From: Macrostomum lignano
Lineage: Eukaryota
Assembly (NCBI GenBank): GCA_002269645.1
Contig: NIVC01000462.1
Coordinates: 277,516-341,515, forward strand
Reading direction: 5' to 3'
Length of the DNA: 64,000 nt
In this document: positions 16,661 to 50,874 of the stretch, one piece after another
Layout: each line of letters begins with the position of its first letter
Position numbering within the stretch: position 1 is the first letter of the stretch
Notes under the pieces: model-generated
Told to the model about the DNA's origin: nothing
Database searches by the model: none
Seen by the model: only the letters and a program-made list of their open reading frames with translations
Translations under genes and position numbers: made by a program

Positions 16661-17295
16661 GTGCTCTACGAGTATACTTTGGATATTTTACTGTTAATGG
16701 AATTAATCGAGTTTATAGCTTAGTAGGAAACCAATTGGCTGTTGATAATAGGCCAGCAACCAATCACATCGGTCGCGTGATTTCGCTAGTTTAATCCTGG
16801 ACGAATCCGATGCTAATCACACACAGCAGTTGGCTCAATACTGTAACAGTTATGCATCTGTTGTGCTCGGATTCTCTTGGCATATTGTCGGTTTCTCAGT
16901 AAAGCTGAGATTGCTAATTTTTATTTACCTACGATGGAAAATTACTGCAGCTTACAGTCGACACTCCCGATAAGATTTTCGATGAGTTATGGGAGTTGTG
17001 TTATTATTTTTCTGCAAAGTGATATTTGAGTTTTTATCTTAAATATTCTCACTAAAAACTTAAGATTTTTATTTTGAAATAGCTTGTGTCGACTTAACGC
17101 TTCTCTGGCATGACATTGGAATTAAGCGCACATGCAACGGACTTCAATGACTATACCTTTCCGGTTAAGTAGGTGACATGAGCTTTTACCTAGGGCGCAA
17201 CTTTTGAAACTAAAGTTTTCTTTTTCATTTTGGAGACTTCGGTTGAAATCGGCATTTGCTATCACAGCTGAAGACTGAGTTAGCTTATTGTAATT

Positions 17296-17990
17296 CAAAA
17301 GAACTCAAGCAGCTCAGTGTATATGTTAAAGCTTATAACAATTTTCTGGATCTATAGTTGCATGTAGTACCGGATACGGCAGATATACGGCAGTAAAGTT
17401 TTGCAGAGCCACTGAAACTTCCATTAGTTACGATTAGCTTCGATTTGCCGCATTTGCTGCTTCGAGTCTCTGGGCCAGGTGAAACACTACTTATCCGCTT
17501 CTGCAAAGAAGCAAGCACTGGCAGCAGAAGTTGCGGCAGACTTCATCCGGCACTGAATCTGCCTGAACGGAGGCCAAGTCTGATTACACAGCGACTTTGC
17601 TTACCTAAACGAGAGATAAAAGCGCTTAAAATGTTTGGGAAGTCGGGATCTTTGTAGCAAGACTGGCAGACTCCATCAATCTGGATATAAAACGTTTTAA
17701 ATTTTTAACAGAAAGAATGCACGACGCGCGTAGAGGCTACCCTAGCATTTTGGCTGTTAATGAAGTAATGGATCTGTGGAAGACTCATCCAGCATTAAGA
17801 GAGGCAGCTATCGACACAGCATTTGTACGACAATAATTCAAGTTAAAAATACCGTTTAAGGAAGAAGCTTCTTTCACTATCCACAGAATAATTGTCTCTG
17901 TTGAATGAACCCAGGCTAAAATTCACTTTTGAAAGTAAAACATTTGTAGGCAAAAACTCTTCATAGCAAATTTACAAAATGACTTTTGTT
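17296..17990. repeat. About 700-bp duplicated block, copy 1 (paired with 28635-29310)
   Basis: Highly similar direct copy starting caaaagaactcaagcagctcagtgtatatg; the ORF track shows near-identical short ORFs in both copies. Confidence 0.9.
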
Positions 17991-18147
17991 CAAATTACTT
18001 AATATGAAGATCTGATTCATGCCCTTTGACATCTCTGTCGGTAAAAACATTTTGCTCTTCATTGTACATGCACAAACGAGATTTCAATCTGATTACAGTA
18101 CGACAATCAATAGTTAAGACTCAATTAAACGGGTGGGAAGATTGTGC

Positions 18148-20545
18148 TTTCCGCGGATCAGCCCACCAGGGAAGGGCTCTGCCGCTGGATATTGTAGGGG
18201 CCATACTACCAGGGGCATAAAGCCTGAGAGGCCCAGATTGGGGCTGGGACTCGAGGCCTAGCTAAGAAACCTTATTGGATGCTACTAGCCCAATTTATGG
18301 GGACACCGCCAACCAAACAGTGGAATCAGGAGGACGGGTGCAAAGACTGATCCACCCAAGCCACCCCCAACGACAAGTCCCGAGTGTGCGCGAAAAAGAT
18401 AGGAATTAAAAAATTTTGGAAAATTTCTGGAAAGCGGTCCGAGAGCGGGAAACCTGAGTCTACAGAAATGGCTTTAAGATTGGAGCGAGTCTGGGCAGCT
18501 TATTTACCAAGGGCGAGTCTCCTATCAGAAGTAGGATCCGTGCAAAAACCCCTATAGGGCTGCAAGCCTCAAGGCTCAAGACCTCAAGACTACCCAACTC
18601 TAATAAGCCCAAGCCAAGGGGTTGGAGAGGAGCACCACAGAGCGAAGGGACACCGGACTCAGCCGGTATTCCCCGATTCAGGACGAAAATCTTCCCCCAG
18701 AACACCAATTCACTGTCAGTGATGAGAGCCTAGACACAATAAGCAGGGATACAACCAGAGAAGCCAGCAGATGGACCAAGGGAGCAGATGGAATCACAGA
18801 GGCGAGATCTATAAACTAATAAATTTACCAACAAAGCTACCAATTAGCCAACTAGCTAAAAGAGGGGGATAAACACAAAGATGCCACGAAAGCAGGAATA
18901 AAAGCAAAGGAGGAGGATCACACAACCTCTGGGGCTCAGCCTCAGGGCTGGCATCAACTGGGCTCTACCGTACACTTTTGGGAATAATCGTCTTTCTTGC
19001 AGGGCGGGTGCGACCGGGGGGCTCAGTCCCGTTCTAGCCACACTGCAGCCCAGAGTCACAATCACTCCAGGTACACCCCCTAACCCAAGGCCGATGGCCA
19101 ACAAATTGGAACTAAAGAAAGGTTGGGCTATTTTTAGATGTGTACATCACATCCGGTGAGGACACTTTTGGATTGGGCTAGCGAGAGCCTAGGCCAATTG
19201 GATTGCACACAACCCGAGAAATGCCGCCAGAGAGGCAGCCAGGGTAAAAACAGTCAGAGACCGTCTTTACGGCTGGGTAAAACACTGGGTTTGTTGTTGT
19301 TGTTAAACGGGGTTGGAAAGCCTAGGGGCCTACCGCGGATCAGCCCTAGAGGGGCTCTACCGCTGGATCTATTCTGTGGGCCATACTGCCAGGGGCATGT
19401 AGCCCGAGAGGCCACAATTGGGACCAGAGCTCAGGACTCTGGTGAGGGCTGGAGCATTGGTGCTACTAACCCAAGCCTATGGTACAAGGCAGCGCCAACC
19501 CAAAAGTGGAATCAGGGACGGTGCTGGGACCGAGTCCACCCAGGCCACCACCCAGCAGACAAGTCCTCGGGAGTGCGCAGAAAAAATTGGAGTTAGCGAA
19601 AAAAAGCTTTGGTTACTACTGAAAGCTACCAATAGCGGGGAAACCCAGAAGCAGGGACTACTCAAACGAAATGTTTTAGCAGTCCCTGCCCAGAAGTCTT
19701 GGAAAAGGGCTTAAATATTGGAGCGAGTCTGGAAAGCTTGTTTCCTAGGGCGAGACTCCAGGCAGGAAGCACAACTACCGGCTACAAACCCAAGGGTATC
19801 GCCTATCCAGCTCTATATTGGAGGCCAGGCCAAGGGGTCGGAAAGGGGCACAAGGAGCAAGAGGACCCGGACTCAGCCGGTATCCCCAAATCGGGCGAAC
19901 TCATTCCCCAGGACACCAATCCACTGTCAGGATGAGAGGCAGAGACACTTAGGCAGGGAGACAACCAGAGGAGCCAGCAGATGGACCAAGGACAGAGCGG
20001 GCAGGGAGGGCAGAGCTCATAACTCCGAAGAATTGGAGACAAACTAATGGCCAGATTAAAACAGGGGATAAAACCGCGCTGGGATGCCAGCTCAGAAAAA
20101 AAGAATGGCAGAAAGGAGGAGCACCTGAACCCAACCTAGCAGGCCTGCTACTTAACCTGCTGCCCGGGCTCAGCCTCAGGGCTGGCATCAACTAGGCTCT
20201 ACCGTACACCTTCGTGAATGGTCATTCTTTCCTGCAGGGCTGGTACGACCGGGGGGCTCAAGTCCCGTTCTAGCCACGATGCAGTCCAGAGTACGCACTC
20301 ACTCCAGGTACACCCCCCTAAACCAAGGCCGAGGGCCGAAATAATTGGAATGAAAAGTAGGGTTATTTTTAGAATGGGCACAGCCCCTCCGGGGAGGACC
20401 CTTAGAAAATTGGGCTAGCCGAAGCCAGGCCAATCGGATTGCGCACAACCCTAAGACAAGCTACCAGAGAGGCAGCCAGGGTAAAAACAGTCAGAGACCG
20501 TCTTTACGGTCTCTGGATAAAACACTGGGTTTGGTTGGTTGGTAA
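18148..20545. repeat. Two diverged head-to-tail copies of a GC-rich unit of about 1.19 kb (18148-19310; 19333-20545), unclassified
   Basis: Shared anchors gcggatcagccc..gggctct.ccgctggat, ggctcagcctcagggctggcatcaact.ggctctaccgtacac and agagaggcagccagggtaaaaacagtcagagaccgtctttacgg. Each unit ends in a (ttg)n or (ttgg)n tract. Confidence 0.8.
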
Positions 20546-24943: not shown

Positions 24944-25732
24944 CAGTGGGTTTTTGCTAAGATGTCAGAACGGAATCTTAAACATTAATTATCTCTGTGG
25001 GAAGTCATGAAAATTCAAGGTTAATTAAGTAATTATTGAAATGCTCTGGCTCATGGTGGAACAGCCAAGATTTCAAGGCTCAATGGGGGGGGACAAAAGC
25101 CATCCATAATGCCTGGTGGCCGTCGTTCAAAGATAAGCAAGGTTTGCAGGATTCCCTATGTTTGGATTAGTGTTGGGTTCTATTATTTAGTATGCAAATA
25201 GAAATAGAATTTTCTATTTCACGGCTGAAAGCAGTTTTCACAGCTACGAGTATTAGCCATCAAGAATTCAAATGTATTCAGAATTCGAACAGAGCTATTT
25301 ATCCAAGTAAGCCTCATTCGAACCATTGAATTTTAACCATAAATCGTCTTGACCAAACGTTTTGTATGTTTTTATACAATCAATTGCTTCTGAATCACGA
25401 CAATTCTTGTTAATTGCGCTTCCGATTCTCAAATTATTCAGCAGAAAGCTTAAAGATGTTCTTTTACTATTTGGCGGCTAAAGAGCTGCAGGGTTCAAAA
25501 ATTAAGCCATGCTAAATTAGCATTTGTTCAAGTCATTGTCCTGCATCCTTTTTGTTTTTTGGTTGAAAGGAAAAGTGGCTACAGCTTCGGGGCTGTCTGG
25601 GTTCAGAAACCAATATCAGGTAAAAAGACAACTACGTGAAACAATTCAATGCCAGTTGTCAATATCAAATATCTAATTCACATGCTTGACAAAATATCGG
25701 TTCATGTATTTCGATACTAGTGTTGCGTATTA

Positions 25733-25800
25733 GGGGGCCGTAGCCCAGCGGTAGCGCAGCTGCTCTGGTGTGCCAGCGACCCAAGCTCGATTCCAAGTCC
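25733..25800 (+). other. tRNA-like sequence (tRNA pseudogene or head of a second SINE family)
   Basis: ggggccgtagcccagcggtagcgc...gctcgattcc resembles tRNA box A/box B, but the T-loop is degenerate and I could not build a full cloverleaf. Confidence 0.4.
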
Positions 25801-26279
25801 AGTCACATTAATTTGGGGCTGAATTGGAATCTTGGCTTGGCTCTGCTCGTGCAATTAACCGCCTTGAGGGCCAACCCCCCAAGGCGCAGTGAAGTGTACA
25901 TGCCTAACTATAATATAAAGTTAGGGCCGCTGTACACTCCTGTGTGAGTGTGTGCCTGCGTACGTATCCGTGTGATTGTATGCCTGCTCAGGGGAGTCGG
26001 CGGAATGGGCAGTAATGCCTCTCGCCGGTTGTGTGCCAATGTCGCTGAAAGTGCGCCAGGATGCACACAACCCCCTGCCTCTAATAAAAAAAGTGTTGCG
26101 TATTTCAAAGATATCATGCATCTGAATTTCTCAACCAAAAGAACGATTTCAAGGATTGCAGAAAGATTAATTGGATGCAAAAACGGATACTTCAAAACGT
26201 TATTTTACGGAACTGTTTATTGCCAAATCGTTCTCAGGCTGTTTGGCCTCGAAGCCGCGCTTGTCCGTCCTTGCAAGAC

Positions 26280-26704
26280 TCAGGTTTTGATGAACACAGC
26301 CCATCCGGGTCCGGTCAGGCTGGCTGGCGGGAAGGCGAACGGCAGCAGGCGGCAGGCGAGCAGCTGCTTGGAGAAGACGGCGCCGCTGCAGTTGGCTCTG
26401 ACGCTGCACTGGAGCAGGCAGTCCGCATCGGACTGGGCACCGGCCGGCCAGGACGAGTCCACGGTAGAGGTCACCGTGATGTCCTTCAGCACAGTGTAGG
26501 CATTGTTGTCTGCAAGTTGTGGTTCCAACAAGAAACCTTCTCAATTATCTCATTTGAAACTCCAAGAAAACAGAGCAAGGCTAACTTATTTAGATAGTGC
26601 AGAGCGAACACAGAGTTGATGGAGGAGCCACCGCAAATCTGCTCAGGGTTTCCCTTGCACTGCCTGTTGCACTTGCTTTCGCTGAGCTGTCCTTGGAGTC
26701 CGTA
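26280..26704 (-). pseudogene. WSC-PAN copy F: 5'-truncated, splice donor lost (exon-1 remnant 26590-26704, exon 2 26280-26509)
   Basis: Homology to copy L starts abruptly at YGLQGQLSESKCNRQCKGNPEQICGG. The donor reads ataagt where L has gtaagt. Exon 2 is intact (DNNAYTVLK...WAVFIKT*). Confidence 0.85.
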
Positions 26705-26705
26705 A

Positions 26706-26849
26706 TCAGAAGACCACAATATTTATACAATTCAACAGAAGAAGATTGGCCTGTCAGGTGCTGATAATAAACGATTTGTTTTTGATGACAACATTAAAAG
26801 TCTACCCTTTGGTCATCTTAGAATGCGGGAAACTATTTTTAATTTATAA
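26706..26849 (+). pseudogene. C-terminal fragment of a Maverick/Polinton protein-primed DNA polymerase B
   Basis: Manual translation SEDHNIYTIQQKKIGLSGADNKRFVFDDNIKSLPFGHLRMRETIFNL* matches the H.IYT...K..LS..D.KR.....I..LP.GH C-terminal signature of Polinton pPolB. Too short to appear in the ORF track. Confidence 0.72.
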
Positions 26850-27270
26850 TGAAAAAAGTGACAACAAATACTTTTCTGCAAGATTTAGCTAATGGGTTGG
26901 AGATTCCAAACTTCCGAGGGGTCTTCATCAGAGATGCACTTCCCAAATCACACAATACTCCTACCCAAACCATAAAAAAGAATGCGGTATCATAAACTTT
27001 GACACCTCTGATAAACCGGGTTCTCATTGGGTTTGCTGGGTGATCGATCGTGATCGCAAGCATAAATACTACTACTTCGATAGCTATGGAACAGCTCCCC
27101 CTGAAGAATTAAGAAATTACTTGAAAGGGCAGAAAATTTATCGCTCAGACTTTATCCTTCAAGAGCTTAACAGCGACATCTGTGGCCAGTGAGCTGTGCA
27201 TAACTTTTTGTATGCAATGACGAAAACCAGAAAGAGCTACAAAGAAACCGTTCTAGGGTTTAGGGTTTAG
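26849..27270 (+). pseudogene. Maverick/Polinton adenain-type (C5) cysteine protease, disrupted
   Basis: MKKVTTNTFLQDLANGLEIPNFRGVFIRDALPK, a frameshift near 26955, then KECGIINFDTSDKPGSHWV...YYFDSYGTAPPEEL...LQELNSDICGQ*. The His (HW), Asp (FDSYG), Gln and Cys catalytic motifs are present; premature TGA at 27190-27192. Confidence 0.82.
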
Positions 27271-28278
27271 GTGTCAGGTGTTGGGTTTTGGGTGTCAGGT
27301 GCTGGGTGTTGAGTGTTAGTTGTTGAGTGTTGGATGTTGGGTGTCAGGTATTGAGGGTTGTACGTTGGGTGTTGGGTGTTGGATGTTGGGTGTTGGGTGT
27401 TAGGTGTCAGGTGTCAGGTGTCAGGTGTCAGGTGTCAGGTGTCAGGTGTTGGGTGTTGTGTGTCAGATGTTGGGTGTTGGGTGTTAGTTGTTGAGTGTTG
27501 GATGTTGGGTGTTAGGTGTTGTGTGTTAGGTGTTGGGTGTTGGGTGTTGGGTGTCAGGTGTTGGGTGTTGGGTGTTGGGTGTTGAGTGATGGGTGTCAGA
27601 TGTTGGGTGTTGGGTGTTAGTTGTTGAGTGTTGGATGTTGGGTGTCAGGTGTTGAGTGTCAGGTGTCAGGTGTTTGGTGTTGGTTGTTGGGTGTTGGGTG
27701 TCAGGTGTTGGGTGTCAGGTGTCAGGTGTTGGGTGTTGGGTGATGGGTGTTGGGTGTCAGGTGTCAGGTGTCAGGTGTCAGGTTTCAGGTGTCAGGTGTT
27801 GGGTGTTGGGTGTTGGGTGTCAGATGTTGGGTGTTGGGTGTTGGGCGTCAGATGTTGGGTGTTGGGTGTCAGGTGTTGGGTGTTGGTTATTGGGTGTCAG
27901 GTGTCAGGTGTCAGGTGTTGGGTGTTGGGTGTCAGGTGTCAGGTGTCAGGTGTCAGGTGTTGGGTGTTTGTTTTTGGATGTCAGATGTTGGGTGTTGGGT
28001 GTTAGTTGTTGAGTGTTGTATGTTGTGTTAGGTGTTGGGTGTTGGCTGTTGGGTGTCAGATGTTGGGTGTTGGGTGTTGGGCGTCAGATGTTGGGTGTTG
28101 GGTGTTGGGTGTTGGATGTCAGATGTTGTGGGTGTTGGGTGTCAGATGTTGGGTGTTGGGTGTTGGGTGTCAGGTGTTGGGTGTCAGGTGTCAGGTGTCA
28201 GGTGTTGGATGTTGGGTGTTGGGTGCTGGGTGTCAGGTGTCAGATGTTAAGTGTTGGGCGTCAGATGTTGGGTTTTGG
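27262..28278. repeat. Degenerate 7-bp GT-rich array (GGGTGTT / AGGTGTC)n
   Basis: Mixed 7-mer units over about 1 kb; they explain the repetitive Gly/Val/Cys/Trp ORFs. Confidence 0.95.
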
Positions 28279-28634
28279 GTGATTATGTATAATTTTTTAC
28301 TGTCTGGTATAAACGCAAAAAATCCTCCTTAGATAAGTAGTTGTAAGTATTGTGATGGGGTGAAATAGTTTTAGGTGTTAGGGTATTATGTGTCAATAGA
28401 TTTTAGTTGATGTTGATTTAAGGGGAATTTTTTGGGAGCGGGGGGCTGGTCGCTTTTTTTGTCCCCCTTAGATGAGGGACTGTAGGTAATGCATTGTGAT
28501 TGCTAGTTTTAAATATAAGAGCATTATGTATAATAAGATTTTAGTAGATGTTTATTTAAGTGAGATTTGGCAATTTTTTTGCGCCAGCGGCCCCGCTATC
28601 ACATCGTAGTAATTGTAATTGACATCTAAGGGCA

Positions 28635-29310
28635 AAAGAACTCAAGCAGCTCAGTGTATATGCTAAGGCTTACAACAATTTTTTGGATCTATAGTTGCAT
28701 GTAGTACCGGATACGGCAGATATACGGCAGTAAAGTTTTGCAGAGCCACTGAAACTTCCATTAGTTACGATTAGCTTCGATTTGCCGCATTTGCTGCTTT
28801 CAGTCCCTGAGTCAGGTGAAACACGACTTATCCGCTTCTGCAACGAAGCAAGCACTGGCAGCAGAAGTTGTGGCAGACTTCATCCGGCACTGAATCTGCC
28901 TGAGCGGAGGCCAAGTCTGATTATTCAGCGACTTTGCTTACCTAAACGAGAGATAAAAGCGCTTAAAATGTTTGGGAAGTCGGGATCTTTGTAGCAAGAC
29001 TGGCAGACTCCATCAATCTGGATAAAAAAGGTTTTAAATTTTTGACAGAAAGAATGCACGAGGTGCGTAGAGGCTACCCAGCATTTTGGCTGTTAATGAA
29101 GTAATGGATCTGTGGAAGACTCACCCAGCATTAGGAGAGGCAGCTATCGACACAGCATTTGTACGACAATAATTCAAGTTAAAATACCGTTTAAGGCAGA
29201 AGCTTCTTTCACTATTCACAGAATAATTGTTTCTGTTGAATAAACCCAGACAAAATTCACTTTTAAAAGCAAAACTTTTGTAGGCAAAAACTTTTCATAG
29301 CTAATTTGCA
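28635..29310. repeat. About 700-bp duplicated block, copy 2 (paired with 17296-17990)
   Basis: Direct high-similarity copy of 17296-17990. Confidence 0.9.
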
Positions 29311-29398
29311 AAATTACTAGCAGTTTCTAGCAGTGTAGTAAAACGTTGTTATCGTAACCATCCATTAACTAAAAATAATGTACGTGTGAGTGCTGGGC

Positions 29399-29468
29399 GC
29401 TCAGCCACCCACGAATAGAGTCCAGTCGGGTCCGGTCAGGCCGGCTGGCGGGCATGGGAGAAAACGGC
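29399..29468 (-). pseudogene. Collapsed fragment G of a PAN exon 3' end
   Basis: Contains gagtccagtcgggtccggtcagg, identical to the family's ..LTGPDWTL.. segment, joined by an internal deletion to ggagaaaacgg (VFS). Confidence 0.7.
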
Positions 29469-30272
29469 TGGGAGAGAACGTTCGTGAATATAAAATCTGA
29501 TACGAATACACTTTAAGCGTATGTCTACTCAATCAACTACTTTTTGAATAGATTTCATCAGTTAAGACACATCGAAACATCGTAACACAGAATACGCGAT
29601 TTCTTGAAGTCTATTCGGCCATTCTTAAGAGACTTGAAAGCTCCAACTGCAGTCAAAGAGGCGCTTGCAAACCTGAAAATTATCTGGCGGCAGCAAGCTA
29701 ATGCTATTGAACTCATTTTTCTGTCCTATATTTAGGTAGCAAGAAACAAATAGGTGATTCCCTTCTAAGACCTGTGTGTTTAAACAGAGAAGCAGCAGTG
29801 TTGACCAGCCTGAGAAACTATTTGCTCTACCATTAGTCCCGGCGTTGATCGGTAGTCAACAAATAAAATATGAAAATTCGTCTTAACACATCATTAACGC
29901 AGTCCTGACTGCATGGAAACTGAGATGCATGTGCCTTGTAAGCTATCATTGAATCCCTGCTTTTTCGACCCTTTCTTCCAGACACGGTTTGCTACTGCTT
30001 TTGTGAGCCATGGTGCATGTATTCTCGAATCGGAGCGAGCATTGCAGCCAATAATTGGTGAAAAACACATCTTTCATTGCCCTTTCTCAGTGAAAAAAGA
30101 ATAAATGACTTTATTTATAGATGCCAAAAAAATTTCTCTTGATAACTTTCCCACACTTTTTATTGATTGACAAGCGGAATTGATAGGAACAGACTGCAAA
30201 GTTCAGAAGGGCCACGCAACTTCACAGTTTCAGGCTGATCATGTCAGAATGTTTTGTCAGGTGCTTTAGAAC

Positions 30273-33342: not shown

Positions 33343-33653
33343 ATGGCTGCCGGAGGAAGAACGCATGAAGACCGAGTGCTGGCAAATATAGAAGAGTTGA
33401 AATACACAAGCGAAGATTGCTGTGCGGCGACTTGTACCAGCACTAGTACCTCTGTAAACGAAGATGGCATCCCGATTCGCATGCACCAGTTTCCGAAGAA
33501 TCAGTCCATGGCATTGAAGTGGCAATCAATGCTGGAGTTACGAGCCATTTCACTCGAGAAGCTGTGGAAAATAAAGTGGAAGGTATGCAGCTTGCATTTT
33601 ACAGACGAGGCGTACAATTGCCCAAGACTACGCCATGACCGAAGTACAAGGCT
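33343..33653 (+). pseudogene. THAP zinc-finger N-terminus of the P-like transposase (5' half, split by the LINE)
   Basis: CCAATC...MHQFPKNQSMALKW...KVCSLHF. After removing the LINE and one TSD copy it continues in frame as RSTRLRWDAVP, the THAP AVP motif. Confidence 0.85.
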
Positions 33654-36600
33654 TGACTTACTTACTTGACTTGGCTGCAGGGGGCTCCGTGCGTCCGGAA
33701 ACAGCGAGGAGGCGTTGCCGCCCATTTCGCTAACCCCTGGCGACCACGGGCAGCTAGTGCTGCGGTGTCGCGCAGGGAGTTCCGGTGGCGCCGGCGTCCG
33801 CAGCGCGGTCCCCCTCAGGAGAGTCCAGGAGGTGGATGTCGCTCGCCCGGCAGCCCTTAGGTAGCGGACGAGCTGGCAGAGATTCTCGGGCCTGGAAACG
33901 TCGGAGAGGTCCGGGTTTGGGCCGAGGTAGGTGAGCCTGTCCTGAGTAAAGGCGGGGCATTCACAGATGAAGTGCTCCGCATTCTTGACACTGGAGAGGC
34001 AGAATGGGCATTCCTCACTGCGGATTTTTCCCTGGAGAAGGTGACGATGTCTGGCAAAGCAGCCATGACCCGAGAGGGCCATGGTAACCGCCCTGATGTC
34101 CCCCTGCGGTTGAGTCCAAGCAGGGCCCTGCGTAGGGCGGAGGAGGTACAGGGGACAGCCGCACGGGATTACCGGCAGTCGGGGGCGTTAGCCCACCTCT
34201 CCTTGTGCTTAGAAGCCACCCACTGGTTGATCCGAGTGGTGACAACGGCGATGGGGGTGGGGGCCACGGGCAGGGGACCAGTAAAAGAACCGGTCGAGTC
34301 AGCCTTGGCCAGGCGATCGGCCAGCTCGTTGCCGGGGTGGCCCGAATGCCCGGGGATCCACCTTAGGGACACCTTGTTGGAGGCGCCTAAGCGGTTGAGC
34401 TGCCCGATACAGCCGAGGACTGTACGCGAGCAGGTGGTGGTGCGCTCAAGGGCGTGAATCGCCGCTTGACTGTCCGAGTGGAGGGTAACTTACTTCCCCC
34501 AGACGCGCTGATTGTACAGCTCCATGGCGCAGAAGCTGATGGCGAGAACTTCGTTCTGGAAGACGGTGGAGCAGGTGCCGGTGTGTTGGGAGAAGGTCGC
34601 CACAGTTCTCCCTCCAGACACGATGCAGTAGCCGTATCCAGAGGCGGAGTTGTTTTGGGACCCGTCAGTGAAGCAGTGGATTTCATGGGGTTTCCAGTTG
34701 TCTCTCGCTTCATGGCGTGGTGGAATGCTGGTTTTGAATTTGAGCGGGGGCAGAGCGTGGACGGGATTCCGTCCGAGAGGGTCAGCAGGCCTCTCGCTGC
34801 TTCCAGGTCTCGCAGGCTGAGGTCGCAATGCGGCCGGAGGTTCCGCTTTCTGAAGGCAAACTGCTTCTGGATTTGGACACCCGCGTCAAGCAGACGATGG
34901 GTGGTTTTCATAGCCTCCCCTCTAACAAAGAGGTCGAGGGGGGAATGTCCAAGAAGGAGTTCATGCCGGCGAAGGGCATAGATGGAGCCGCGCTCATGAT
35001 AGCTCGACAAGCGCGGCCTTGCACCCTATTTAAAACCTCAAGAACCCCTTTCACCTCTAGGGCACTGTTCCAAATGAAGCCGGCGAAGGAGATGGCCGGT
35101 CTAACAATGGCAGTGTAAATCCACCAGAGGCGGCGGGGGGTGAGGCCCCAGGTAGTACCAAAAGCTCTGCGGATCTGCGCGAGAGTCGCGAGAGCTTTGC
35201 GGGCTTTAGTTTGGACGTGCGGGGTCCAGCTCAACCTGTGGTCGAGGGTGACGCCCAGACATCTAGTTTGTTTCTCCATGGCAACGGTTTGCCGTAGAGG
35301 GAGAGCAGTTCGATCCTCCAATTTCGGCGGCTGGTGAACATGATAGCCACGGTTTTAGACTCAGAGAACCTGAGACCGCAGCTATGTGCCCAGCGCTCGG
35401 CACGGTGGATGAAGGCTTGAAGGAGGTCCCTGAGGACCGCGGGCGATGGTCCAGCCACAGTAGAGGTAACATCGTCCGCATAGCCGACCTTCTGAACAGG
35501 GTCCGGATGCGGGCTGCAAAGCAGCTCGTCCATGACTAAGTTCCAGAGGATCGGGCTGAGGACTCCACCTTGCGGTCCGCCTTTCTGGACTTCCACGGAG
35601 CGTGAGTGTCCCAGGAGGTGCGAGGTGGCAGTACGATGGGAGACCATGTACATGATACAGCGGGTGAGGTGCTCGTGCGTGCCCCGGGATTCCAGGGCTC
35701 GCTTAAAGGCTTCAAAGAGCACATTGTTAAAAGCACCATCAATGTCGAGGAAAAGCGACAGCGCGTATCCACTGCCAAGCACGGCGCGCTCCAGCTTGTC
35801 GACAATGGCGTGCAGCGCACTTTCGATGGAACGTCCAGGACGAAAGGCGTGCTGATTTGGGGAGAGCGGGGAGTTCCTCAGCTCAACGAGAAGGCGCCAG
35901 AGCACCAGCCGTTCCATCAGTTTGAAGAAGAAGGAAGTCAGACTGATAGGGCGTAAGCTTTGGCGGAGTGATAGTCTCCCTTTCCTGGCTTGGGTATGAA
36001 GACTACCGTAGCCTCTTGCCAGGCTTTTGGCACATACCCGAGGGTAATGCTGGCCTTGAAGAAGTTGCAGAGGAGGCCAAGAAACCTGTCATTTTTAACT
36101 GCCTCATGAAGAAAGGCAGGATAAATGTTGTCAGGACCCGGGGACTTGAAAGGAGAGAAGGATTTTGCGGCGCGAGCCGTCGTCTCTCTAGTAATGATGG
36201 TCGAAGCCAGGATCTGTCCGCCCGGAGAGTGGTCCGGTGGGCCTAGCTGCGGTGCGGCACGTGGGAAAGAGCTGGTGAGCATAATGTCCAGCGATTCCCC
36301 AGGGTTCTCAGCGAGCCGGCCGTCCGGTCTTTTAATAACTGAGAGCTTTGACATTTGTCGAGGGTGAGAGCCTTAACTACGCGCGAAGTAGGGCGGGTGC
36401 CTTCTAACTCCGCGCAGTATTGGCGCCATTTGTCGGACTTGGCTTTCCTGGTTTCACGCTTAAAGTCGTGGATCGCTTCTTGATAGGCGGCCAGGTCAGC
36501 TGGGTCCTTGCTCTTGCGAGCTTTCCGTTGGAGGCACTTTGCCTTGCGCCGGAGGGATCCGAGCGCCGGGTGCCACCAGGGGGCGGATTTTTTGCCTTTG

Positions 36601-39566
36601 TAGGCTTTAAGAGAACAGGAAGCCTCATGGGCTGTCAGGACGGTCTTGCTGAGCAAGTCTGCAAGGTCATCCACTTCCTGACAGGTGGTTGGAGCGACGG
36701 TAGTCAGCTGATCTGTCTGGCATTTCAGGGTTTCCGTGAAAGCCGTCCAATCAGTGTTCCGGACGTTCCTTTTCCACAGAATGTGAGGCTTGGGGCAAGA
36801 GGATTGCAAACGAAAACGAACGAAGCGATGGTCAGACAGAGACTCCTCTTCGTCCCACACCTCCCAGTCCTTGACTAAAGGAGCCAAGCCATGGGAGACG
36901 AGGGTAACGTCGAGGGCTTCCGTCCATCGCCCGTTGTCAAAGGTGGGGGTTCCACCAATGTTGCAAAACTCAGTGTTGGTGGTGCAGATTTAAGCAAGGA
37001 GTTCCTCGCCTCTGCTATTGGAAATATTACTTCCCCAGTGGGTGTGGTGAGCGTTGATGTCGCCCGCCACCAGCAGCTCGAACCTACGGTTAGAGCAGTA
37101 GTCCACGAGGGAGGTGAGGTTGGGTGGAACCGCGGGGCCATCGCCAAGGATATAGATCGAGGCAATGATGACCGTGCGGTTGGTGATAATGTGGTTGGAC
37201 TGAATGACACAGAGGTCTCTGTCAGAGAGGTCCGGTCTGTGCCAAGCTTTGAGGTGGGTAGATACGAAAATGGCTGCTCTGGGGTTTTGGGGGTCTTGAA
37301 AACAGTCAAAACCAGCAGGAATATTCGGAATCTTACCTTTCTTTGTCCAGGGCTCCTGGAGTAGGATGATGCCCGGTTTCGCAAAGTTTGCCACCCGCAT
37401 CAGGTTGGTCGAGGCCGCGATGCAGTGGTGCAGGTTAAGCTGCAGGATGTCCACTCCGGAAATTCCACGAGTGGTCCGCGCAGCTTCCTGCCGGCTCAAG
37501 GCGAGTTGTGCAGGAGAGCTGCCTCTTCTGCCTCGCCGATAGCTCCAGGCTCCAGCTCCATGGGCTCCTCCCGGATGGATTCCATGGTCGAGGGCGAGGT
37601 CGCTACCTGGGCGGCATTCTCGCTCTCGGCCCGGTTTTCCGGGGGGGGCCGCAGTGGTGACACTGGGCTGGGGGTGGCTGCGGTTGGGGGCCTTGGCGGT
37701 GTCCAGCAGCTGCTTCGCGCGCTGAGTCAGACCAGAGCGGATAGTTGTCCGGGCGGGTTTCCGGCCCTTTCCACGTCCGCCTGTTGCTGCAGCTTTCGCG
37801 GCTTTCCCTCTGACAGGGTCCACGTCCTCGGAGGGGTCGTGACAACCGGGAGCTTCTTTTCCTGGGCGTTTCCGCGCGGCAGAGCCCCCGACTGCCCGCT
37901 TACGCTTCTCCGGGGGCGGTGGGCGGGTGGCGTCAGACTCAAAGCTAAAGAGCTGAATCTGCAACATCCCGACAGAGATGATGGACATGTCCGGGTAGCG
38001 GAGCATCCAGCTATCCGACAGTCCAAGAATAGCCGTGAAACCGTCTCCGCCCGGCTTGGAGATGGTCTCGTGAACTACGACACCGTTGGCCGGTAGCTCC
38101 GGGTTGGAGGCCACTAGCAGGTGACGCAGCTCGTCGGCCTTGGTGATGCAGCTGCGAGCCGGGATCCAGGCACGGTGCCGGTGTGTCCGGGGTCGCTCGT
38201 CCTCCCTGTAGATGAACAGGTTCTCCAGCTCCGTACCCCAGTCGAAGGTTTTCAGCAGCTCGAGGAGCTGCTGTCCTGACTGGCTGTCGGTGGGCTGGAT
38301 ATAGAGGGCTTGGTCCTCGACTTTCGTCTTTTGGACTCGAATAGTAGAGCCGCTCAAGGCCATCTTGACCAGGTGGGAGTCCAACCTGCGCCAGATAAGG
38401 TCGAGCTGTTCGGCCGTAAGAGGCGTCTCCTGGCCTTGGATAACCAGGGCCGGCTGCCTTTTGGCCATAGCCGCGTAGGTTCGCTTCGGCTTTGTGGTTT
38501 GGCCAGCGCCCCCCGCTTTGGATCCCTCCACGGCCGTGGGAGCTTCCACACGGGCAGAGGTCCGGTCACGGGAGGGGCCAGCCGCACCAGGAGCTTCGGC
38601 GGCACCTGACGCATCAGACCGGCGCGCGGGTCCACCCCCTTGTCGGATGTCGGTTCCTCCGCGGGGTTCGCAGAGTTACCGGCACCCTCCTCAGAGGTGG
38701 CCGGAGGGGCGGCTTTCGCATTCCTCCGTTCCTCCGCTTTGCGCTGGAGAAAGGCTTTGTAGCGAGCAATGCTACGGGCCTTCTTTTTCGAAATCTGAGG
38801 TCCGCTGTCTTGTCCAGCCACTCCGGTATTATCCTGAGCGGCGGCAGCGGCAGATTGAGAGGCACCGGGGGTTCCGGTGTTGCGAATGTCCGGCTGGGCC
38901 GCGGTGCCAACCTCGGTTGGTGCTCTAGCAGCCTCGGACGTGTCGGAGGTAAATGAATACTCCATGAGTCGCTGAAAGGCGAGTGGGGACTAGAGGTGAG
39001 AAGCCGCTGGGCCGTAACCCCAAACCCAACAACCAGGCCAAGAGGTAGCGACCGGGGGTGGCTTAAGCCCGTACCGGCCCGACCGCTAGCAACCGAGAAA
39101 CTCCCCGGCTAAGAGCCCGGCTTGGAAAAACCAGAGGCCGAACCAAAGGACCAACAGCACGGTACTACACTGGGCCCTTGAGGGAAGCAGGAGGACTGCC
39201 TCCGGAGCCTGCGGACTGGCCGCATACCCTGTTAAGGTCAGAGGGTGGTACCTGTTCCTCAGAGCCGTGGCCAGAGGTACCTGATACGCACAGGTGCACT
39301 TCCGGGCGGAGCCCGTACCCAACTTGGCCAAAAGGCCACGGATGCGTTGCCGCCGCCGGAGCCCAGTCAGTCCAGCAGCCCTAGAGCTGCCTTGAACACA
39401 TGCGGGGCGTGAACCCCTGGGTCGGCTTGCGAGTCAGCTTGGAGAGAGTTCTCCTGCCATTCCTGCACCAGAATAGAGGGGGTGCAGGTGTGTAGGATCG
39501 CAGACCTTAGCCCGTAGGCCTAGTCTGTCTCATGCTACACAGGCGTGCTGTACCCGCCATTGCATG
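33654..39566 (-). mobile_element. Full-length non-LTR retrotransposon, LOA/R1-group-like (ORF1, APE, RT, RNase H, CCHC), 5.9 kb, multiply frameshifted
   Basis: 14-bp TSD cgaagtacaaggct (33640-33653, 39567-39580) and a 3' tail of (AAGT)n-type repeats. APE: QLNLHH, LQEPW, GDINAHH, SDH. RT: PGPDNI, LDIDGAF, GGPQGGVLSPILWNLVMD, YADD, LGVTLD. RNase H: [26 protein letters not shown]-terminal CPFC..EHFICEC. ORF1 (ATG 38965) has a DUF4780-like AWIP...LL..NP.L segment. Confidence 0.92.
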
Positions 39567-39580
39567 CGAAGTACAAGGCT

Positions 39581-41310
39581 ACGGTGGGATGCTGTTCCTA
39601 ACAGAGAGCTGGTTTTGCCACGACTAATCAGGGAGAAGCCACTAGAAATAATTCGGAGTGACGATGCGGTTGATAATACGTACCCACCTGTTCTGTCGCG
39701 CTTTGACGTGGAAGACGCAGTTCCAGAAGCAGATCAGATTCCTTCAATGGCAGTTGTTTTAGCTAGCGCTGCTCCACCAGAACCAACTGCGTCTTGTTCT
39801 GCATCATTTCTACGACTGCATGCATCGTCTAGCAAAGTAGCTGGAAACCTACGACGAAAGCTGTGTCGGCAGTGTTATAAATCGCGAAGCCGAGAGGGTT
39901 ATATCTTCTATAGCGCGCGGTCTGATGAAAATAAAGCTCAGAGGGCGTGGCCGTCTCTCTAGGCCGTCACGTGTATTTATACCATAGACAGTAATATTCA
40001 TACGAGTATAGCCCAAGCTTTGGTGTCACACACATGCATATGCACACATACACAACAGGCAGGAGAAGACGATCGATAAGCTGCGGCGCAAAATCGAAGA
40101 CTCGCAGGTTGGAAAGTTCAGCAGCAGCAGCAGCAGCGCCCTCCACCGTCTAGTGCAGAGCTCTATGAAGCAAACAAAGTCTCGCCACCGTGTCATGCGT
40201 TGGGCTGTCGAAGACATCTGCTCTGCTATTCAAGTGCATCACAAAAGTCCTGCCGCGTACCGACTTCTGCGAGATCAGTGGAAGATGCCATTTCCATCAG
40301 AGACGTCAATTAAGCGGCGCATCAGATTGTTTTTTCAGGAAGAAGGCGTTTGTGAAGTTACCATGAAGCTGATGAGAAAAAAGTTGCAAGACTGCACAGA
40401 GAAAGAGCGAGTGGCCACTCTTTGCTTTGATGGAATGAGCTTATCAGGATGTGTGCGTTACAGACAGTACAAGGACAAGATAATTGGCTTTGAGACTAAT
40501 CCTGCTCAAGCGGATGCACCAAAAGTTGTAGACGAAGCGGTAGTAGGCGTAGTTCGCGGTATTTTGCACAACTGGAAGCAGTCGATTGCATATTACCCTG
40601 TGCATCGGAGTCTCGGACAGGAAGGTTTTCGTAACGCGATTGAAAGTTGTCTGACGGCGTGTCATCATGCAGGAATTATCGTTGTAGCTTTGGTTGCAGA
40701 CCAAGAGACAAGCCAGTGGAGCTACCAAGCTCTTCCAAGCCGTTTCTGCACCACCCAGTGACAAACGAGCCTGTTTTTGTCATCATTGATATCCCTCACT
40801 GCCTGAAAAATGCGCGAAATGCTTTGTTCAAGAACGACATTGTGTTCGACGATTGCAAAACAGCAAAATGGAAGCATGTTACGGACTTCTATCAAGCCGA
40901 TAGTCGCAACAAGCTTAAATTGGCACCAAGGTTAAGCGACAGTCACTTCAACCTACAGGTTGGAAACAAAATGAAAGTATCTCTCGCGGCGCAGATTTTC
41001 AGCCATTCAGTCGCCAGTGGAATCCGAACTTCGGTGTATCACAAAATAATAGAATCCGATGGAGAGCAAACAGCAGAGTTTTTAGATAGAATTAATGGCA
41101 TAAAAGACTAAATTGCTGCAGAATCACGTGAGCCATTCAGTTTTGAGATGCTTCCGACACGCAAATGTGACCTTCCCCTCGTGCTCCGTGCACACGGAGA
41201 TCGTCTGGCAGCAACTGTGCGTCAAGTTCGCTCGTCTCAGACAGCATCACTGGTGCCGCTGTGAGGCCAAGCCGCTGAAGGATAGGACAGCGCGATGCTC
41301 AGCAAGCTGA
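39581..41310 (+). pseudogene. Remainder of the P-like transposase (fragmented, internally deleted)
   Basis: SPAAYRLLR..PFPSETS, LCFDGM, WKQSIAYY, LVADQ, DIPHCLKNARN and KMKVSLAAQIFSHSVA, then a C..H-type C-terminal segment (41113-41310). Frameshift at about 40730. The segment carrying the third catalytic acid is not found. Confidence 0.82.
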
Positions 41311-42149
41311 AAGATGAGTAAACGTAATTAACCTTTGTGTTTTTATTAAACATTTAATTGTATTTCGTTCTTTGTCACATTCGTTACCTTCAATTTGTTC
41401 ATGAACATTTGCTTCAACTACCGGGTAAGTAGCTAGCTTAAACTATAAAGTATTATTTTGTTTTCAGAATGCTTTTGTCTTGCCCAAATGCTTTATATGT
41501 ACGAGTATAATATTTTTTTGTGAAATCTTCTTTCAATCTGTGTATACATGATAAGTTGATACGACCCTGTGCATCAAAATATATACACATGTAAGTGCAA
41601 TGCGTATGCCTCTACAGGTGTATTATAACAAGTTTAAACCAAGCCCACATTTTTGTTAAATTTTTTTCATTTTCCGTCGGTAATAAACTTCAATGATTGA
41701 AAAATGAGGGTCTGAAATGTCAAAACTTTTTTGTCTACATCATAATCTAAATATAATATTAAAATTTTACTTGGTGCACAAATATATCCAAAAAACTCTA
41801 TACAGACGCCCAATTGAAAGTAGCTTATTCATGAAATAGGCGAGTGATCCATCTAGTGTTTTTATTATCTATGGCTGCACCTAACTTAGCAAAATTTTGT
41901 GAATTTTTTGATGACATACTTCTAGGGATGGCGTAAGCATTCGTGAACGCCTGCGCCTTCCTGCTCGCAAAATAGCTACTCAAGCATTGAGTACTCATAA
42001 TTCCAGCAAAAACTAGTTCGGAATCAAATACGTTTTGAAATCATTTATGTATGTAGTTGTAAAAAACACGGGCTCTGGAGATGATAAGTGACGCTCCAAA
42101 ATATTTCATATTCATATTTCATATTTCATATTTCATATTTCCTATTCAA

Positions 42150-43155
42150 CATTGATTTTAATTGCGGAACTCTCTCCACCAAAGATTCTCGGAAAAGCAC
42201 GTTGACCAATCTCATCCTCAACTTCAATGCTTTATGTCCAAGACAGTGGAAATCCGGCCTGATTAGATGTCTGCTCCACAGAGCTTTCAGTGTCTGCAAC
42301 ACCTGGACTAACTCTGACCAAGAAGTGAATTTTCTGACCAAAATGTTTCAACAAAATGGTTATCCTCGTGCGTTTATCCACTCTCACATTCACAAATTCG
42401 TCTCTGAGAAAATCGTCAATCAGCCTAGCGCTAAAGCCGATCACATCGATCTCAACGAACCAACTCTTGTCCTCCCTTTCTTTGGCTATCCTTCTCAACT
42501 TTTCAAAAATAAAATCTGCAAATTATTCCGCAACTCGCTTAATTGCAACATGGCCGTGTCATCTTTCGTTCTGCTAAGGTTGGCAACTTTGTCGGTCGGT
42601 TGAAGTCACGTGTTCCCTGTGCTCTTCGTGCTGGTGTCGTTTATCAGTTCAACTGCTCTGATGACCAGAGCGTCTCCTACCTGGGGAAGACAAAAAGGCA
42701 CCTGCACACTAGAATCAGGGAGCACTGGCTGAAACCGTCGGCTTTCCAAAACGATCTCTTAGAGTGTATTAGTTGCTACAACTGCAAACCCGAAGAGCGC
42801 TTCAAAGTCATTGATCAATGCTCATTTGACTCCAAACTCCAGATAGTTGAAGCGCTGTACATTAAAGCGCATTCCGTCAACCTTAACACTCAACTCCAAC
42901 ACAGTGGCGCGGGACATGTCCTCCGTGTGTTCTGAGGGAGGGGACACTGGATGTACATTATATACTTCTAACTATATCGCTATCATTCCGTCCCTAGACT
43001 TTGCCTCTCGACTTTTGGACCAACAAACATGTGCTTCAAATATTGATTGATTTTACACCCAAAGTTTTGTATTTATTTACTGCCGATCTCACTAGTTTCT
43101 TTCGCTCAAAAATAAACCTAAAGATGCACAGTATCGTGCGAAACGCGTCGTTCAA
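42150..43155 (+). mobile_element. 5'-truncated Penelope-like element (RT thumb + GIY-YIG endonuclease + pLTR)
   Basis: KSGLIRCLLHRAF...NGYP...LPFFG, a frameshift near 42560, then GVVYQFNC...YLGKTKRHLHTRIREH...EALYIK...LNTQ (GIY-YIG). Confidence 0.88.
43115..43152 (+). ncRNA. Minimal type-I hammerhead ribozyme vestige in the Penelope pLTR
   Basis: aac-CTAAAGA-t-gcac(agtatc)gtgc-GAAA-cgcGTC-gtt: stem II, GAAA, a palindromic minimal stem III, a GUC site and a 3-bp stem I. The core CUGANGA is mutated to CUAAAGA. Confidence 0.6.
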
Positions 43156-45936: not shown

Positions 45937-47762
45937 TTTTCCTGAAGGAAAAGTGTTAAAGCGCATTTTGGGTTCTCACGCTCACGCTTTTATCTTCCAA
46001 AGCAATGTCGTTAATTGGACATGGATGACCAATAGAAGCTGTCTGCTGATATTTGGTTCTATTATTGACAATGCTTTGTTCCCATCTGGATCCGTGATCC
46101 ATTGGAATGGGAAAGGCTCTGGGATTCGTTGCCATAGTGATGCAATTCCCCAATCAAGAAATCAATTACTGGGTGCCCGAGAGGCTTGGTAAACAGTGCT
46201 GAATTAGAGGGTCCATGGCAGCAATCAAGCATACTCCTATATTAACAGCACAATTAATTAATGGCATGCGTGTGGTTTCAGAACAAAAGCCATATGAACA
46301 GAAAAAGCTAGAACCTGAACGCCATTAAAGACAGTAAACAAGATCGCATCAGACTACTGGCATCAGATTTTTATAGTCTACTGAATACAAAAGAATTTAT
46401 TGTCCCTATTTCTGATTAAACTGTTCTCGAATAAATTTCAGCACCACTTTTTCCATTTTTCTACTCACAAAAGTAGTCTAAACTGTATCTAAATTATATT
46501 TTTGTAGATATACCTGCGTTACAAAGGTGTCGTCAGAAAGTGACTTGAAACTACAAATTTTATTAGTGATTTCCAGAACTGGCTTCTTACAGGCGGTCCA
46601 GGTGCTAATTTAAGACGTTCAGTTAGACTTGCCATAAACAGTCAAAGATTAAATACTAATATTTTAAGTTCAGTTTTGCCGGTACAAGTGTCACAACACG
46701 CTCAAAATCCCATTCAAGCAAGCATCAGTGTTGAATAAGTAAACACATACGCGTCTTAAATCAGTTAACAAGTGACAGTTGAAGGTTTTTAGATGTTATA
46801 ACGAGATTTTTAAGGATCCTGAGAGAAAATTTAAACCTTTCAATCATTCGAAATCATGATCCTTGCCCCATCACCTTCATGCAACCTTGACTGGCCCTGC
46901 CAATACTCATACCGAATAGAGCAGCATCACAACAGAGTCCGAAGTGACACGGCATAAGCCCACATGCACAGATATCCGACGTCTGTCCTCATCAATGGGA
47001 TGTCTGCAGCGTCAGTAGCTCCCGCACCGCGGCTATACTGGATGGAAAAAACTTGAGAACGATCCAAGGACCAAGCTTTTCTTCGAACTATTGTTTTCTG
47101 AGATTGAATTCAATTTTTTTAATTCTGCCATCCACACTGCTTTTTGCTCCGGAAGTATTTGTGTCCGTTACCAGGAAATGAGCTTGCTGCATGCCCTCAC
47201 AATGCATTTTGTTATCTTCCTCAGCAAGTACCTTTTTACAGGTAGAGTTCCGGAAGATTGCAGGCTGGAAAACGTGAGCCCCGATGTCTCCGGAGGTGCA
47301 TCAGTAGCGTCAGCAGCTCCCAGGGATGTGGAGACTAGGTACTGGATTGTTGACGATAAATCTGCGGTGAATTTGCATGCTCTATGCGATTATTTAACGT
47401 ATAAAATGCACTGATTTACTACATCTATCAGTAAGAAAATGTACATGCACATTGAGCACTATAGCTTATTAGGTGAGAGCCAACCTCTCCTTTCCTCTCA
47501 ACTCGACTTAATTTATTTGGCGAGCAAAAATCGTCTTGACACGATTGAAGGGAACTTTCTTCTCCAAAAAACTTCTTTTACGTAGATTCTATGCTCATAA
47601 AATTGCTCATAAAGTGCAGGTATCCAAAAGTTAATTCGACCGAAACTCAAAATATTGTCCAACAGAATGTTTCTTTTGCCTCTAGCTCTAGAACTTATTA
47701 TTTTCAGATCGTTGTCACGCTGTTTGGCCTCGAAGCTGCTTGTCCGTCCTTACAAGACTCAA

Positions 47763-48475
47763 CTAGGTTTTGATGAACACAGCCCATCCGGGTCCGGTCA
47801 GGCTGGCTGGCGGGAAGGCGAACGGCAGCAGGCGGCAGGCGAGCAGCTGCTTGGAGAAGACGGCGCCGCTGCAGTTGGCTCTGGCGCTGCACTGGAGCAG
47901 GCAGTCCGCGTCGGACTGGGCAGCGGCCGGCCAGGACGAGTCGACGGTAGAGGTCACCGTGATGTCCGAATTCTTCAGCACAGTGTATGCATTGTTGCCT
48001 GAAAGTTGTGTAATTTTATTAAGATTTTCTCTCAGTTGAAATTCTAAGAGGCAGCGTCGAGCTAACTCACTCGGAAGGTCATAGCAAACACGGAGTTGAT
48101 TGAGAAGCCGCCACAAATCTGCTCTGGGTTTCCCGTGCACTGCCTGTTGCACATGCTATCACTGAGCTGTCCGTGGAGTCCGTAGGAGCTGCCGCAGAAG
48201 CACTGCTTGCCGACCTGCACGCCGAAGTATGGAAAGCGGCCCAGAGAGCAGACGTTGCTGCAGAACTCGTGCGACATGTTGTTGAGGCTGTGCACTAGGT
48301 CGCCAACACCAATACTGTACGGCCCCAGATTTTTTAACCCTTTCAGACCTGTCAGGTCTCTGTTCGAGTTATCACCGTCTCGATAACAACCAACGTAGGA
48401 GAAATGAGCCACCCTGCCGGCTGCACAGGTCAGGAGGCCGCACAGCAACGCCGACTCTAACAGTGAGATTCTCAT
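47763..48475 (-). CDS. WSC-PAN copy K with a 1-nt deletion at the exon-1 end (WSC-only product, pseudogene, or cryptic-donor rescue)
   Basis: Exon 1 (48071-48475) is 405 nt, phase 0 (atgaccttccga|gtgagt vs H ctgacctacccga|gtgagt). Exon 2 (47763-47998) needs phase 1, so canonical splicing gives ...TFRATMHTLC*. Confidence 0.65.
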
Positions 48476-49220: not shown

Positions 49221-50874
49221 AATCGTCAGGCATGTACAATCTCTGTCCCTCATTGGTTGTCAATTGCACAACAACCCTCGGGCAAGTTTCGTGCACAAAC
49301 TCCCCCGAAAATGGGTCCTTTCACGAAATCGTGAAAGCGAGCGAACGAAAGTTATAAAATTTTCCCGCAGCACAGGCAATATTTTTGGCGAGCTACAAAA
49401 GTTTAAACTTTTCAGTACACGAATAAAACTGTAGGGACGTTGACCCTAAACTTTGCAGGCTCTAAGCAGAGCTACGGGAGATTCTCGCAGCACAGGAGAA
49501 GATGGAATCTGTCGAGAGCCGACCCAGTGGCGGTTTGACAGCTTCAAGCAGGCTGCAGCAGTACAGATTGCTCCGTCACCTGATACTCCGTCGATCCCTC
49601 CACATCCCTGTTGTGTCTTTAAAGGCAACGATGTGGAGACAGAGCAACCATGCCCGCCCGCATGGCCCAATCCACTGACTACAACAGCTCAGTCTCGCTC
49701 TTTCTTCGGAAGGTGGCCGCCTCCCCCAGTTACTGGCTCCCTAGCCTGTAAGTTTGCGTTATTGAAAAAATTTATTCTATATACAACATTGTTTTTAAAC
49801 CTAGGAAACAAGCCTCAAAACGAAGGTTTTCCTATTTTCTGAGCAGCTTTCTTTTTTTTCTTATCAGGTATTTCCCAAAACAATAGAAATCCTTGGAAGG
49901 ACCAAACCAAAATGAAAACTAAAAAAAATCAATTCGTCAAATTTTTTTCTTCCATCTTTTATTGTCGAGATACTGCGGAAAGCGCGACCGCCCGAAAAAG
50001 AAGAGATCGAGCTTTTGCGACGATCACGGAGGAACCATGCAGCGTCGCTAGCAGCTTCCTGCTGGAAGGTGGATTTCAGCCCTTCGAGTGTCTCAAAAGC
50101 AGCGCATGAGCTGATTAAAGTAGTCAGGTTTGCGTCGTTACCTAAATTGTGCGCTAATGTGCATAAATACGCATTTTGTCAAAATCCCTAATTTCTAGAT
50201 CCATCCTGTCTAGATCCATTGCGTGTACTGGGTGCATTCCTTTTTGCACTGGTATTTGGATTCGAACTTGGGATCATGCTGCTTATAATAGGAACCTAGT
50301 GGCACAAATGAGAAAACTTCTATTGTAAATTAATTTTTAGGAAGGTGCAGGACTGCAGGTGGCTTTGCACTGATGGTTGAAAGTTGTTGGGACTCTGGTT
50401 TTGGGCAGCAAATTGAATGAGGTTTAAAGAATACGTATGGAAAGTGGATAATTAGAGTACTAATACAAGTAGTGAGTAAAAGTAGTATATTAGGAAGGTT
50501 TTCGAACTGAGATGATTTCGTTTTTTTCTTATAGAATAATCAATATGCTTCGTAGAATTAATGGGATTACGGGGGGAAGTGAAAAACTCGAATAGCACAC
50601 TCAGGAAAACTATTCAAATAAATCTTAATCCCAGGAAGATGCATGGTTTAATGCCATTTGTTAATTGCCAAAAAGCTGATTGACAATCGAGTTAAAACAT
50701 TTTTTATTTAACTCACACTATCTCAAAGTTACAAAGCGAATTCCAGCACATCAAAAATCTTATTAGATCAAAAACCGATTTTTTCTGAGATAAATATTTT
50801 TCAGTTTTGTTCAGAGTTGAATCGTTGTCATGCTGTTTGGCTTCGAAGCCGCTTGTCCTTTTCTCTGAAAGCAT

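Follow-up and report, generated by a model that had tools for sequence, protein, structure and literature searches.

The stretch from 26704 to 28610 of the window (by which we mean the whole 64,000-nucleotide piece analysed here, on contig C462 of the 764-Mb genome) is, judged by its homologies, the dead end-piece of a Maverick/Polinton, an ordinary genomic fossil. It very probably represents the decayed terminal 1.9 kb of an old element that is likely to have inserted into an array of host WSC-PAN genes and is then likely to have been shortened by a single non-homologous deletion, which took most of the element and the front of the host gene beside it. The locus provides a clean example of the Maverick-associated loss of a host gene copy, older than the duplication of the block in which it lies, and points to an older Maverick lineage in this genome, the modules of which are probably opposite in orientation to those of a young, abundant family. 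Taken alone it carries little weight, consisting of a transposon end that is dead and of one gene lost from a large WSC-PAN array.

The relic, the host remnant and their junction

The features of the locus are the following.

26280 (5' edge approximate) to 26508, minus strand: PAN/Apple exon of the host WSC-PAN remnant, open frame (Pfam PAN_1 E=6e-4, below cut-off)
26509 to 26589 (approximate), minus strand: intron of the host remnant, donor AT, paralog GT
26590 to 26704, minus strand: 3' third of the WSC exon (Pfam WSC positions 60-82 of 82, E=8e-4)
26704, no strand: host-Maverick junction, one A common to both sides
26704 to 26849, plus strand: C-terminal tail of protein-primed DNA polymerase B (pPolB), last ~40 conserved residues, by homology
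26847 to 26851, plus strand: TAATG stop/start overlap, in this copy and its C221 duplicate alone
26858 to 27270, plus strand: adenain-type (Peptidase C5/Ulp1-like) protease pseudogene, by homology to Peptidase_C5
27277 to 28281, plus strand: G/T-rich 7-mer satellite, GGTGTTG / GGTGTCA, 143.6 copies, a tandem repeat of ~1 kb
28282 to 28610, plus strand: terminal inverted repeat (TIR) of the old Maverick lineage with decayed CTACT terminus, 83% to the C312 copy
28611 to 29318, no strand: host flank, a repeat with a second copy at 17287-17984, by sequence comparison

The preliminary description had read a Maverick/Polinton relic at this place, and the pPolB tail, the C5-type protease and the TIR terminus bear this out by homology. 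Its limits of 26706 and 27270 were drawn too narrowly, as the relic runs on to 28610 and comprises, over 1.9 kb, the pPolB tail, the broken protease, the 7-mer satellite and the TIR.

As had been described, the pPolB signature ends at the TAA of 26847-26849, closing a 47-codon frame (26706-26846) whose translation matches the very end of pPolB. Over 40 aa the tail shares 80% of its residues with the end of a polymerase ORF of this genome, and it aligns to 94 of 113 outside homologues (1055-3010 aa, many with PF03175), at a median of 5 residues from their C-terminus. The genome polymerase copy carries the family B motifs DANNLYG, KLANNSVYG and YTDTDS and its atlas neighbours are named DNA polymerase at 0.97-0.98; a PDB sequence search with the polymerase returned nothing relevant. 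The protease pieces of the relic match 83/90 and 90/90 outside homologues, so that an adenovirus-like cysteine protease, a Maverick feature, is present by homology. Of the domains expected from the preliminary description only one was recovered by profile: the protease hits Peptidase_C5 (E=0.0054, under the curated cut-off, an unbroken genome copy lying above it), but the 47-aa tail by itself has no Pfam and no PHROG match. PHROG gave no match for the protease either, and in the PDB search its top hit was an unrelated rotavirus protein, followed by weak hits to ASFV S273R (E=0.06) and adenain (E=0.8). By homology, the identity of the pPolB tail and of the protease pieces is secure.

The protease had been described as beginning with the ATG of 26849 and as carrying His, Asp, Gln and Cys motifs. 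These motifs are present (codons at 27025, 27079, 27160 and 27181, respectively), but the ATG opens a frame of 48 codons (stop 26993-26995) without catalytic residues. The frame is broken at ~26945-26975 and a second time near 27190, with a TGA at 27190-27192, and there is no single protease ORF because the catalytic motifs lie in another frame than ATG 26849 and are followed by this TGA. The family protease start corresponds to 26858-26860, nine bases behind that ATG, where the codon is GTG in the window but ATG in contig C221, which carries a sister copy, and in some contigs of the runs.

The 7-mer satellite belongs to the element end in several old copies: the array also lies 3' of the protease in C221, C1159 and C812, and inside both inverted ends of the C1159 copy. 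It contains one canonical G-quadruplex motif. Sequences related to the 330 bp after the satellite were found at no fewer than 44 further genome places among the matches listed (40 of 80 candidates scored), most of which continue to a CTACT terminus, and the copy in C312 ends ...GACTACT at the place homologous to 28610. As the same sequence forms both inverted ends of the C1159, C27 and C924 copies, the stretch 28282-28610 is on this comparison the terminal inverted repeat of the element. A TIR with AG...CT ends is a further Maverick feature, decayed in the relic at its terminus at 28610. The 6-bp target-site duplication is unreadable for the relic, the left end being lost. Telomere addition 3' of the protease was considered and rejected, since only about two TTTAGGG units precede the satellite and the array continues into the TIR; an Rfam search of 25500-30000 for a group I intron or another RNA family gave no match.

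On the left, homology to the WSC paralogs at 51299 and 48184 ends, for both, at 26704, two bases ahead of 26706 and in line with the earlier statement that it stops 1-2 bp before the pPolB fragment. The junction is genuine. That it might be an assembly chimera has next to no probability: the array is repetitive and the assembled element copies contain many indel-like breaks, yet one contig spans it from 26615 to at least 26904 (26904-26927) in each of 4/4 runs from 3 studies (one of the 4 possibly the assembly's own source), and the junction recurs at 96% identity on contig C221, where it lies in a long duplicated block. The misassembly that had been named as the possible undoing of the reading is thereby contradicted. 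The C221 sister carries further breaks of its own, and the tree path length between it and the window is 0.027, versus at least 0.12 to other old copies. A minus-strand non-LTR retrotransposon (33501-39108, with endonuclease, reverse transcriptase and RNase H-like frames by eye) is absent at the matching place of the C221 block.

The host side belongs to a minus-strand array of at least 8 WSC exons, most followed by a PAN exon (secreted WSC-PAN genes), that occupies 1786-51602 of the window; further such arrays are found on C462, C1424, C221 and C1636. The PAN exon remnant is 85-90% identical to the paralogs at 47691-48184 and 50820-51299. Its intron is placed on the basis of a paralog contig, from a run guessed to be RNA, that skips 26509-26594, and the splice donor is AT instead of GT in both the window remnant and the C221 sister. 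Missing from the WSC remnant are the signal peptide, the start codon and the N-terminal part of WSC, 98 codons by comparison with the paralog at 51135-51602; the relic stands where the 5' end of a WSC gene had been, as was proposed. The minus frame closes at 26722 without an ATG, and the host copy in C221 has an additional TGA stop. With 98 codons absent, the donor lost in both sisters and the extra TGA in C221, the WSC-PAN remnant beside the relic is, by sequence, a pseudogene. The host remnant and the relic are oriented away from each other, and a working protein is not to be expected from either. Among the holders listed for this sequence there was none of RNA type, and among the contigs listed for the 4 runs guessed to be RNA, none bridges 26704; both results are uninformative on expression.

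WSC matches lie close to 5 of the 27 regions that are of old type or bear a TIR (4 of the 5 being copies of one insertion) and to 0 of 6 young regions; we claim no enrichment near Mavericks, as the regions are too few and not independent. That the WSC gene was Maverick cargo was rejected, as neither a second TIR nor any other element part lies elsewhere in the window. The window also holds two AIG1/GIMAP-type GTPase ORFs (55910-56947, Pfam AIG1 E=9e-35, and 58794-59738), each behind a 20-bp tandem array, and fragments at 40012-41111 and 42088-42935 which, judged by eye, are putatively P-element-like transposase and Penelope-like (GIY-YIG), respectively.

Relatives of the relic and gene order of the old lineage

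Intact relatives had been predicted, and full-length elements are indeed found in the genome. The protease piece has at least 150 scored matches out of 540 candidates, and all but 3 of those listed are without internal stop. They include a young Maverick family of abundant, near-identical copies (e.g. L049-L050, L121-L122 and L125-L126), whose full-length members have TIRs starting AGTAG and ORFs for a PLA2-like protein, rve integrase, polymerase, C5 protease, A32 ATPase and double-jelly-roll capsid. The integrase, ATPase and capsid genes that the preliminary description had expected in complete elements are thus present (rve, Pox_A32, DJR-like), and in the full-length relatives rve integrase, C5 protease, A32 ATPase, double-jelly-roll capsid and PLA2 all score above the Pfam cut-off. 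The ORF of 291 aa that follows the major capsid gene is without Pfam match and owes the label minor capsid to its position alone. Our search of the open literature found no paper on the Mavericks of this host, which may well be catalogued elsewhere, and nothing useful on WSC-PAN genes among the titles listed.

A tree of 42 polymerase-tail/protease stretches separates 27 young from 15 old copies, the window included, with a split of 100/100; the old copies sit on long end branches, and the bootstrap of the tree is not fully settled. On this basis the relic is a member of an old lineage that has decayed and is distinct from the young family. The rve integrase of the young family is absent from the relic and was not found in any mapped old-lineage copy; packaging ATPase and double-jelly-roll capsid, which the relic does not contain, occur as remnants in the old-type copies C27 and C312. 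None of the old-lineage copies mapped is full-length. The 6-bp target duplication is perfect in 1 of the 4 copies examined with both ends (C2087), matches in 4/6 letters in C924 and does not match in C27 and C87.

In C87:295859-296030 and C486:392759-392930 the end region of young copies contains a terminus of the old type (ending CAACTACT), in C87 ~0.8 kb before the present terminus, and the ends of the young lineage may have grown by accretion. In C312:207363-210807 a capsid piece is followed directly by a protease end, satellite and TIR; here one end may have been copied onto the other. A repeat at 18125-20321 of the window is common to the insert that splits the Maverick remnant of C1159 (C1159:361100-362050, 70-72% identity).

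The two lineages differ in what follows the protease. A convergent ORF lies 3' of it in 27/27 young copies and in 0/16 other old loci, whereas a TIR lies there in 15 of these 16 loci, within 1.1 kb in 14. These loci do not count as independent of each other, and it was the TIR that led to three of them; when only the 7 independent old insertions retrieved with the polymerase/protease query are considered, the TIR is downstream of the protease in 6/7. In C1159 and C27, polymerase and protease face one TIR, pointing outward, and the minor capsid gene likewise faces the other. The two TIRs of C1159 both contain the satellite and are 90% identical, and in C27 polymerase and ATPase share one strand, opposite to the young order. 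We consider it probable that the polymerase-protease module of the old lineage pointed outward, inverted relative to the young family, and that the protease stood beside the TIR already while the lineage was active. Against such an inversion, the ends of C27 have no matching 6-bp duplication and, over the ATPase region, C27 shares 88-89% identity with young copies, for which reasons it may be a chimera, and C312, with a capsid directly before the protease piece and TIR, fits neither order without further rearrangement.

The adjacency of protease and TIR could alternatively stem from a capsid-less internal-deletion derivative of a young-order family that spread non-autonomously, which we regard as unlikely but worth keeping in mind. 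Most old copies are short and without ATPase and capsid genes, and there are mini-elements of ~1.3 kb (C924:83300-84640, C2839 and C95) in which two old-type TIRs enclose a protease piece. However, such a derivative accounts poorly for C1159, where polymerase and protease run out to one of the satellite-bearing TIRs and the minor capsid gene to the other, and for C27, where the polymerase is on the ATPase strand; furthermore, at least 3 different sequences follow the protease among the old copies. The idea that a capsid-less derivative kept the protease for cleavage of the terminal protein was dropped, since this cleavage is attributed to the vOTU domain of the polymerase itself (PMC11161782).

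Formation of the junction and of the TAATG overlap

For the window, we propose that an old Maverick would have been inserted by its integrase into the WSC-PAN gene array; an integrase-made insertion is suggested by the surviving end, which is a true element terminus. One end-joining deletion with 1-bp microhomology would then have taken away the element except for its terminal 1.9 kb, and with it the front of the WSC gene next to it. Decay of both remnants would have followed, changes in the spacer between polymerase and protease yielding TAATG, and the chromosome block would thereafter have been duplicated to give the window and C221. Of the two routes offered earlier, deletion or ectopic recombination, deletion after insertion fits, but homologous ectopic exchange does not, as the single base shared at 26704 is in keeping with end-joining.

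With the left end and the left target-site copy gone, insertion followed by deletion leaves the same trace as one-ended or aberrant integration. One-ended integration occurs with retroviral-type integrases, and a junction made in one step, by such an event or by patch repair of a break in the WSC exon with a Maverick end, would explain one precise terminus and one blunt internal join with 1 bp shared. We nevertheless find this rather improbable, because the right flank is neither the missing 5' part of the WSC gene nor the upstream DNA of the paralog, so that host DNA was lost in any case, and because internal deletions are common in other old copies.

The overlap itself had been reported correctly: the last A of the TAA at 26847-26849 is the first base of an ATG. 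Its interpretation as a viral coupling arrangement is not supported, since it is confined to one insertion and its C221 duplicate. In a census of 41 loci (38 parsed, 3 unparsable), 37/38 parsed other copies have no TAATG at the protease start, the C221 sister alone having it. Young copies (n=26) have 31-93 nt between polymerase stop and protease ATG, and six old copies with an unshifted polymerase tail have a spacer of 13-17 nt. The young spacer is a variable G-rich repeat of 31-93 nt (L004-L020, L034-L040), so that near-identical copies differ in the polymerase C-terminus. Searching the genome with a 19-letter pattern that covers the overlap gave 2 exact matches, which are the two sisters, and 14 with one mismatch, of which 8 were inspected and 0 were Maverick DNA; in the DNA search for copies 40/317 candidates were scored. 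The usual stop of other old copies is homologous to 26840-26842, which is out of frame in the window, where the polymerase frame passes it and runs to the TAA. As the overlap is common to both sisters and ATG 26849 is in frame with the family protease start, it predates the split of window and C221. TAATG is probably the outcome of small changes in the AT-rich spacer of 13-17 nt along the branch to this one insertion, and probably a by-product of decay.

A working termination-reinitiation signal, coupling the protease to the polymerase in a short-lived Maverick sublineage, is by comparison very improbable. In its favour, the overlap does exist, both sisters have retained it and its ATG shares the frame of the family start; caliciviruses and influenza B make use of UAAUG overlaps (PMC10275272), and the old spacers, at 13-17 nt, are no longer than the 20 nt over which such coupling is described (PMC10275272). 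Against this stand the census, in which all but the sister are without the overlap and the young spacers measure 31-93 nt, the restriction of exact matches to one insertion, and the dependence of the overlap on the usual stop being out of frame. A second, chance TAATG at 26890 closes the shifted polymerase frame in 5 other decayed copies, all of one insertion; these frames end 35 nt inside the protease gene and were not counted as start overlaps. In addition, TGGGA, the core motif of the upstream element in termination-reinitiation of the TURBS type, does not occur upstream, in 26704-26846. We give very little credence to the possibility that, in animal Mavericks of a sublineage whose polymerase-protease module was inverted and pointed outward, the protease was translated by termination-reinitiation, an old spacer having collapsed into UAAUG during the active life of the element and the relic and its sister being the last trace of calicivirus-style coupling in a Polinton. 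Stop-start overlaps in decayed AT-rich spacers should be compared among sister copies before they are read as signals.

Comparison with known systems

Mavericks of animals are described with pPolB, protease, rve integrase, ATPase, major and minor capsid genes and TIRs with AGT-like ends, a 6-bp target duplication and a length of 12-25 kb, most copies being degraded fossils (PMC8097293). The full-length relatives in this genome show this architecture (PMC8097293), the minor capsid gene by its position and the 6-bp duplication in one of four copies examined at both ends, whereas the window holds one end of a dead copy only. In the cane toad Maverick the modules point away from each other (PMC8097293). 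The elements of this genome differ from vertebrate Mavericks in the make-up of their modules, and in them the protease gene comes after pPolB on one strand (PMC8097293).

The young family also resembles the adintoviruses, degraded endogenous copies of which are widespread, in having adenain, PolB, rve integrase, an FtsK-type ATPase, hexon/penton and a PLA2-like gene (PMC8502044). Its polymerase hits PF03175 weakly (E=3e-4) and in this resembles the divergent PolB class (PMC8502044), whereas PLA2-like genes such as that of the young family are described for Alpha virion modules (PMC8502044).

Finally, the pentanucleotide of the relic is the same as that of the TURBS systems of caliciviruses and influenza B (PMC10275272). 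UAAUG coupling of this kind requires an upstream structured element pairing with 18S rRNA and needs conservation (PMC10275272), in contrast to the overlap described here, which is not conserved among the copies.
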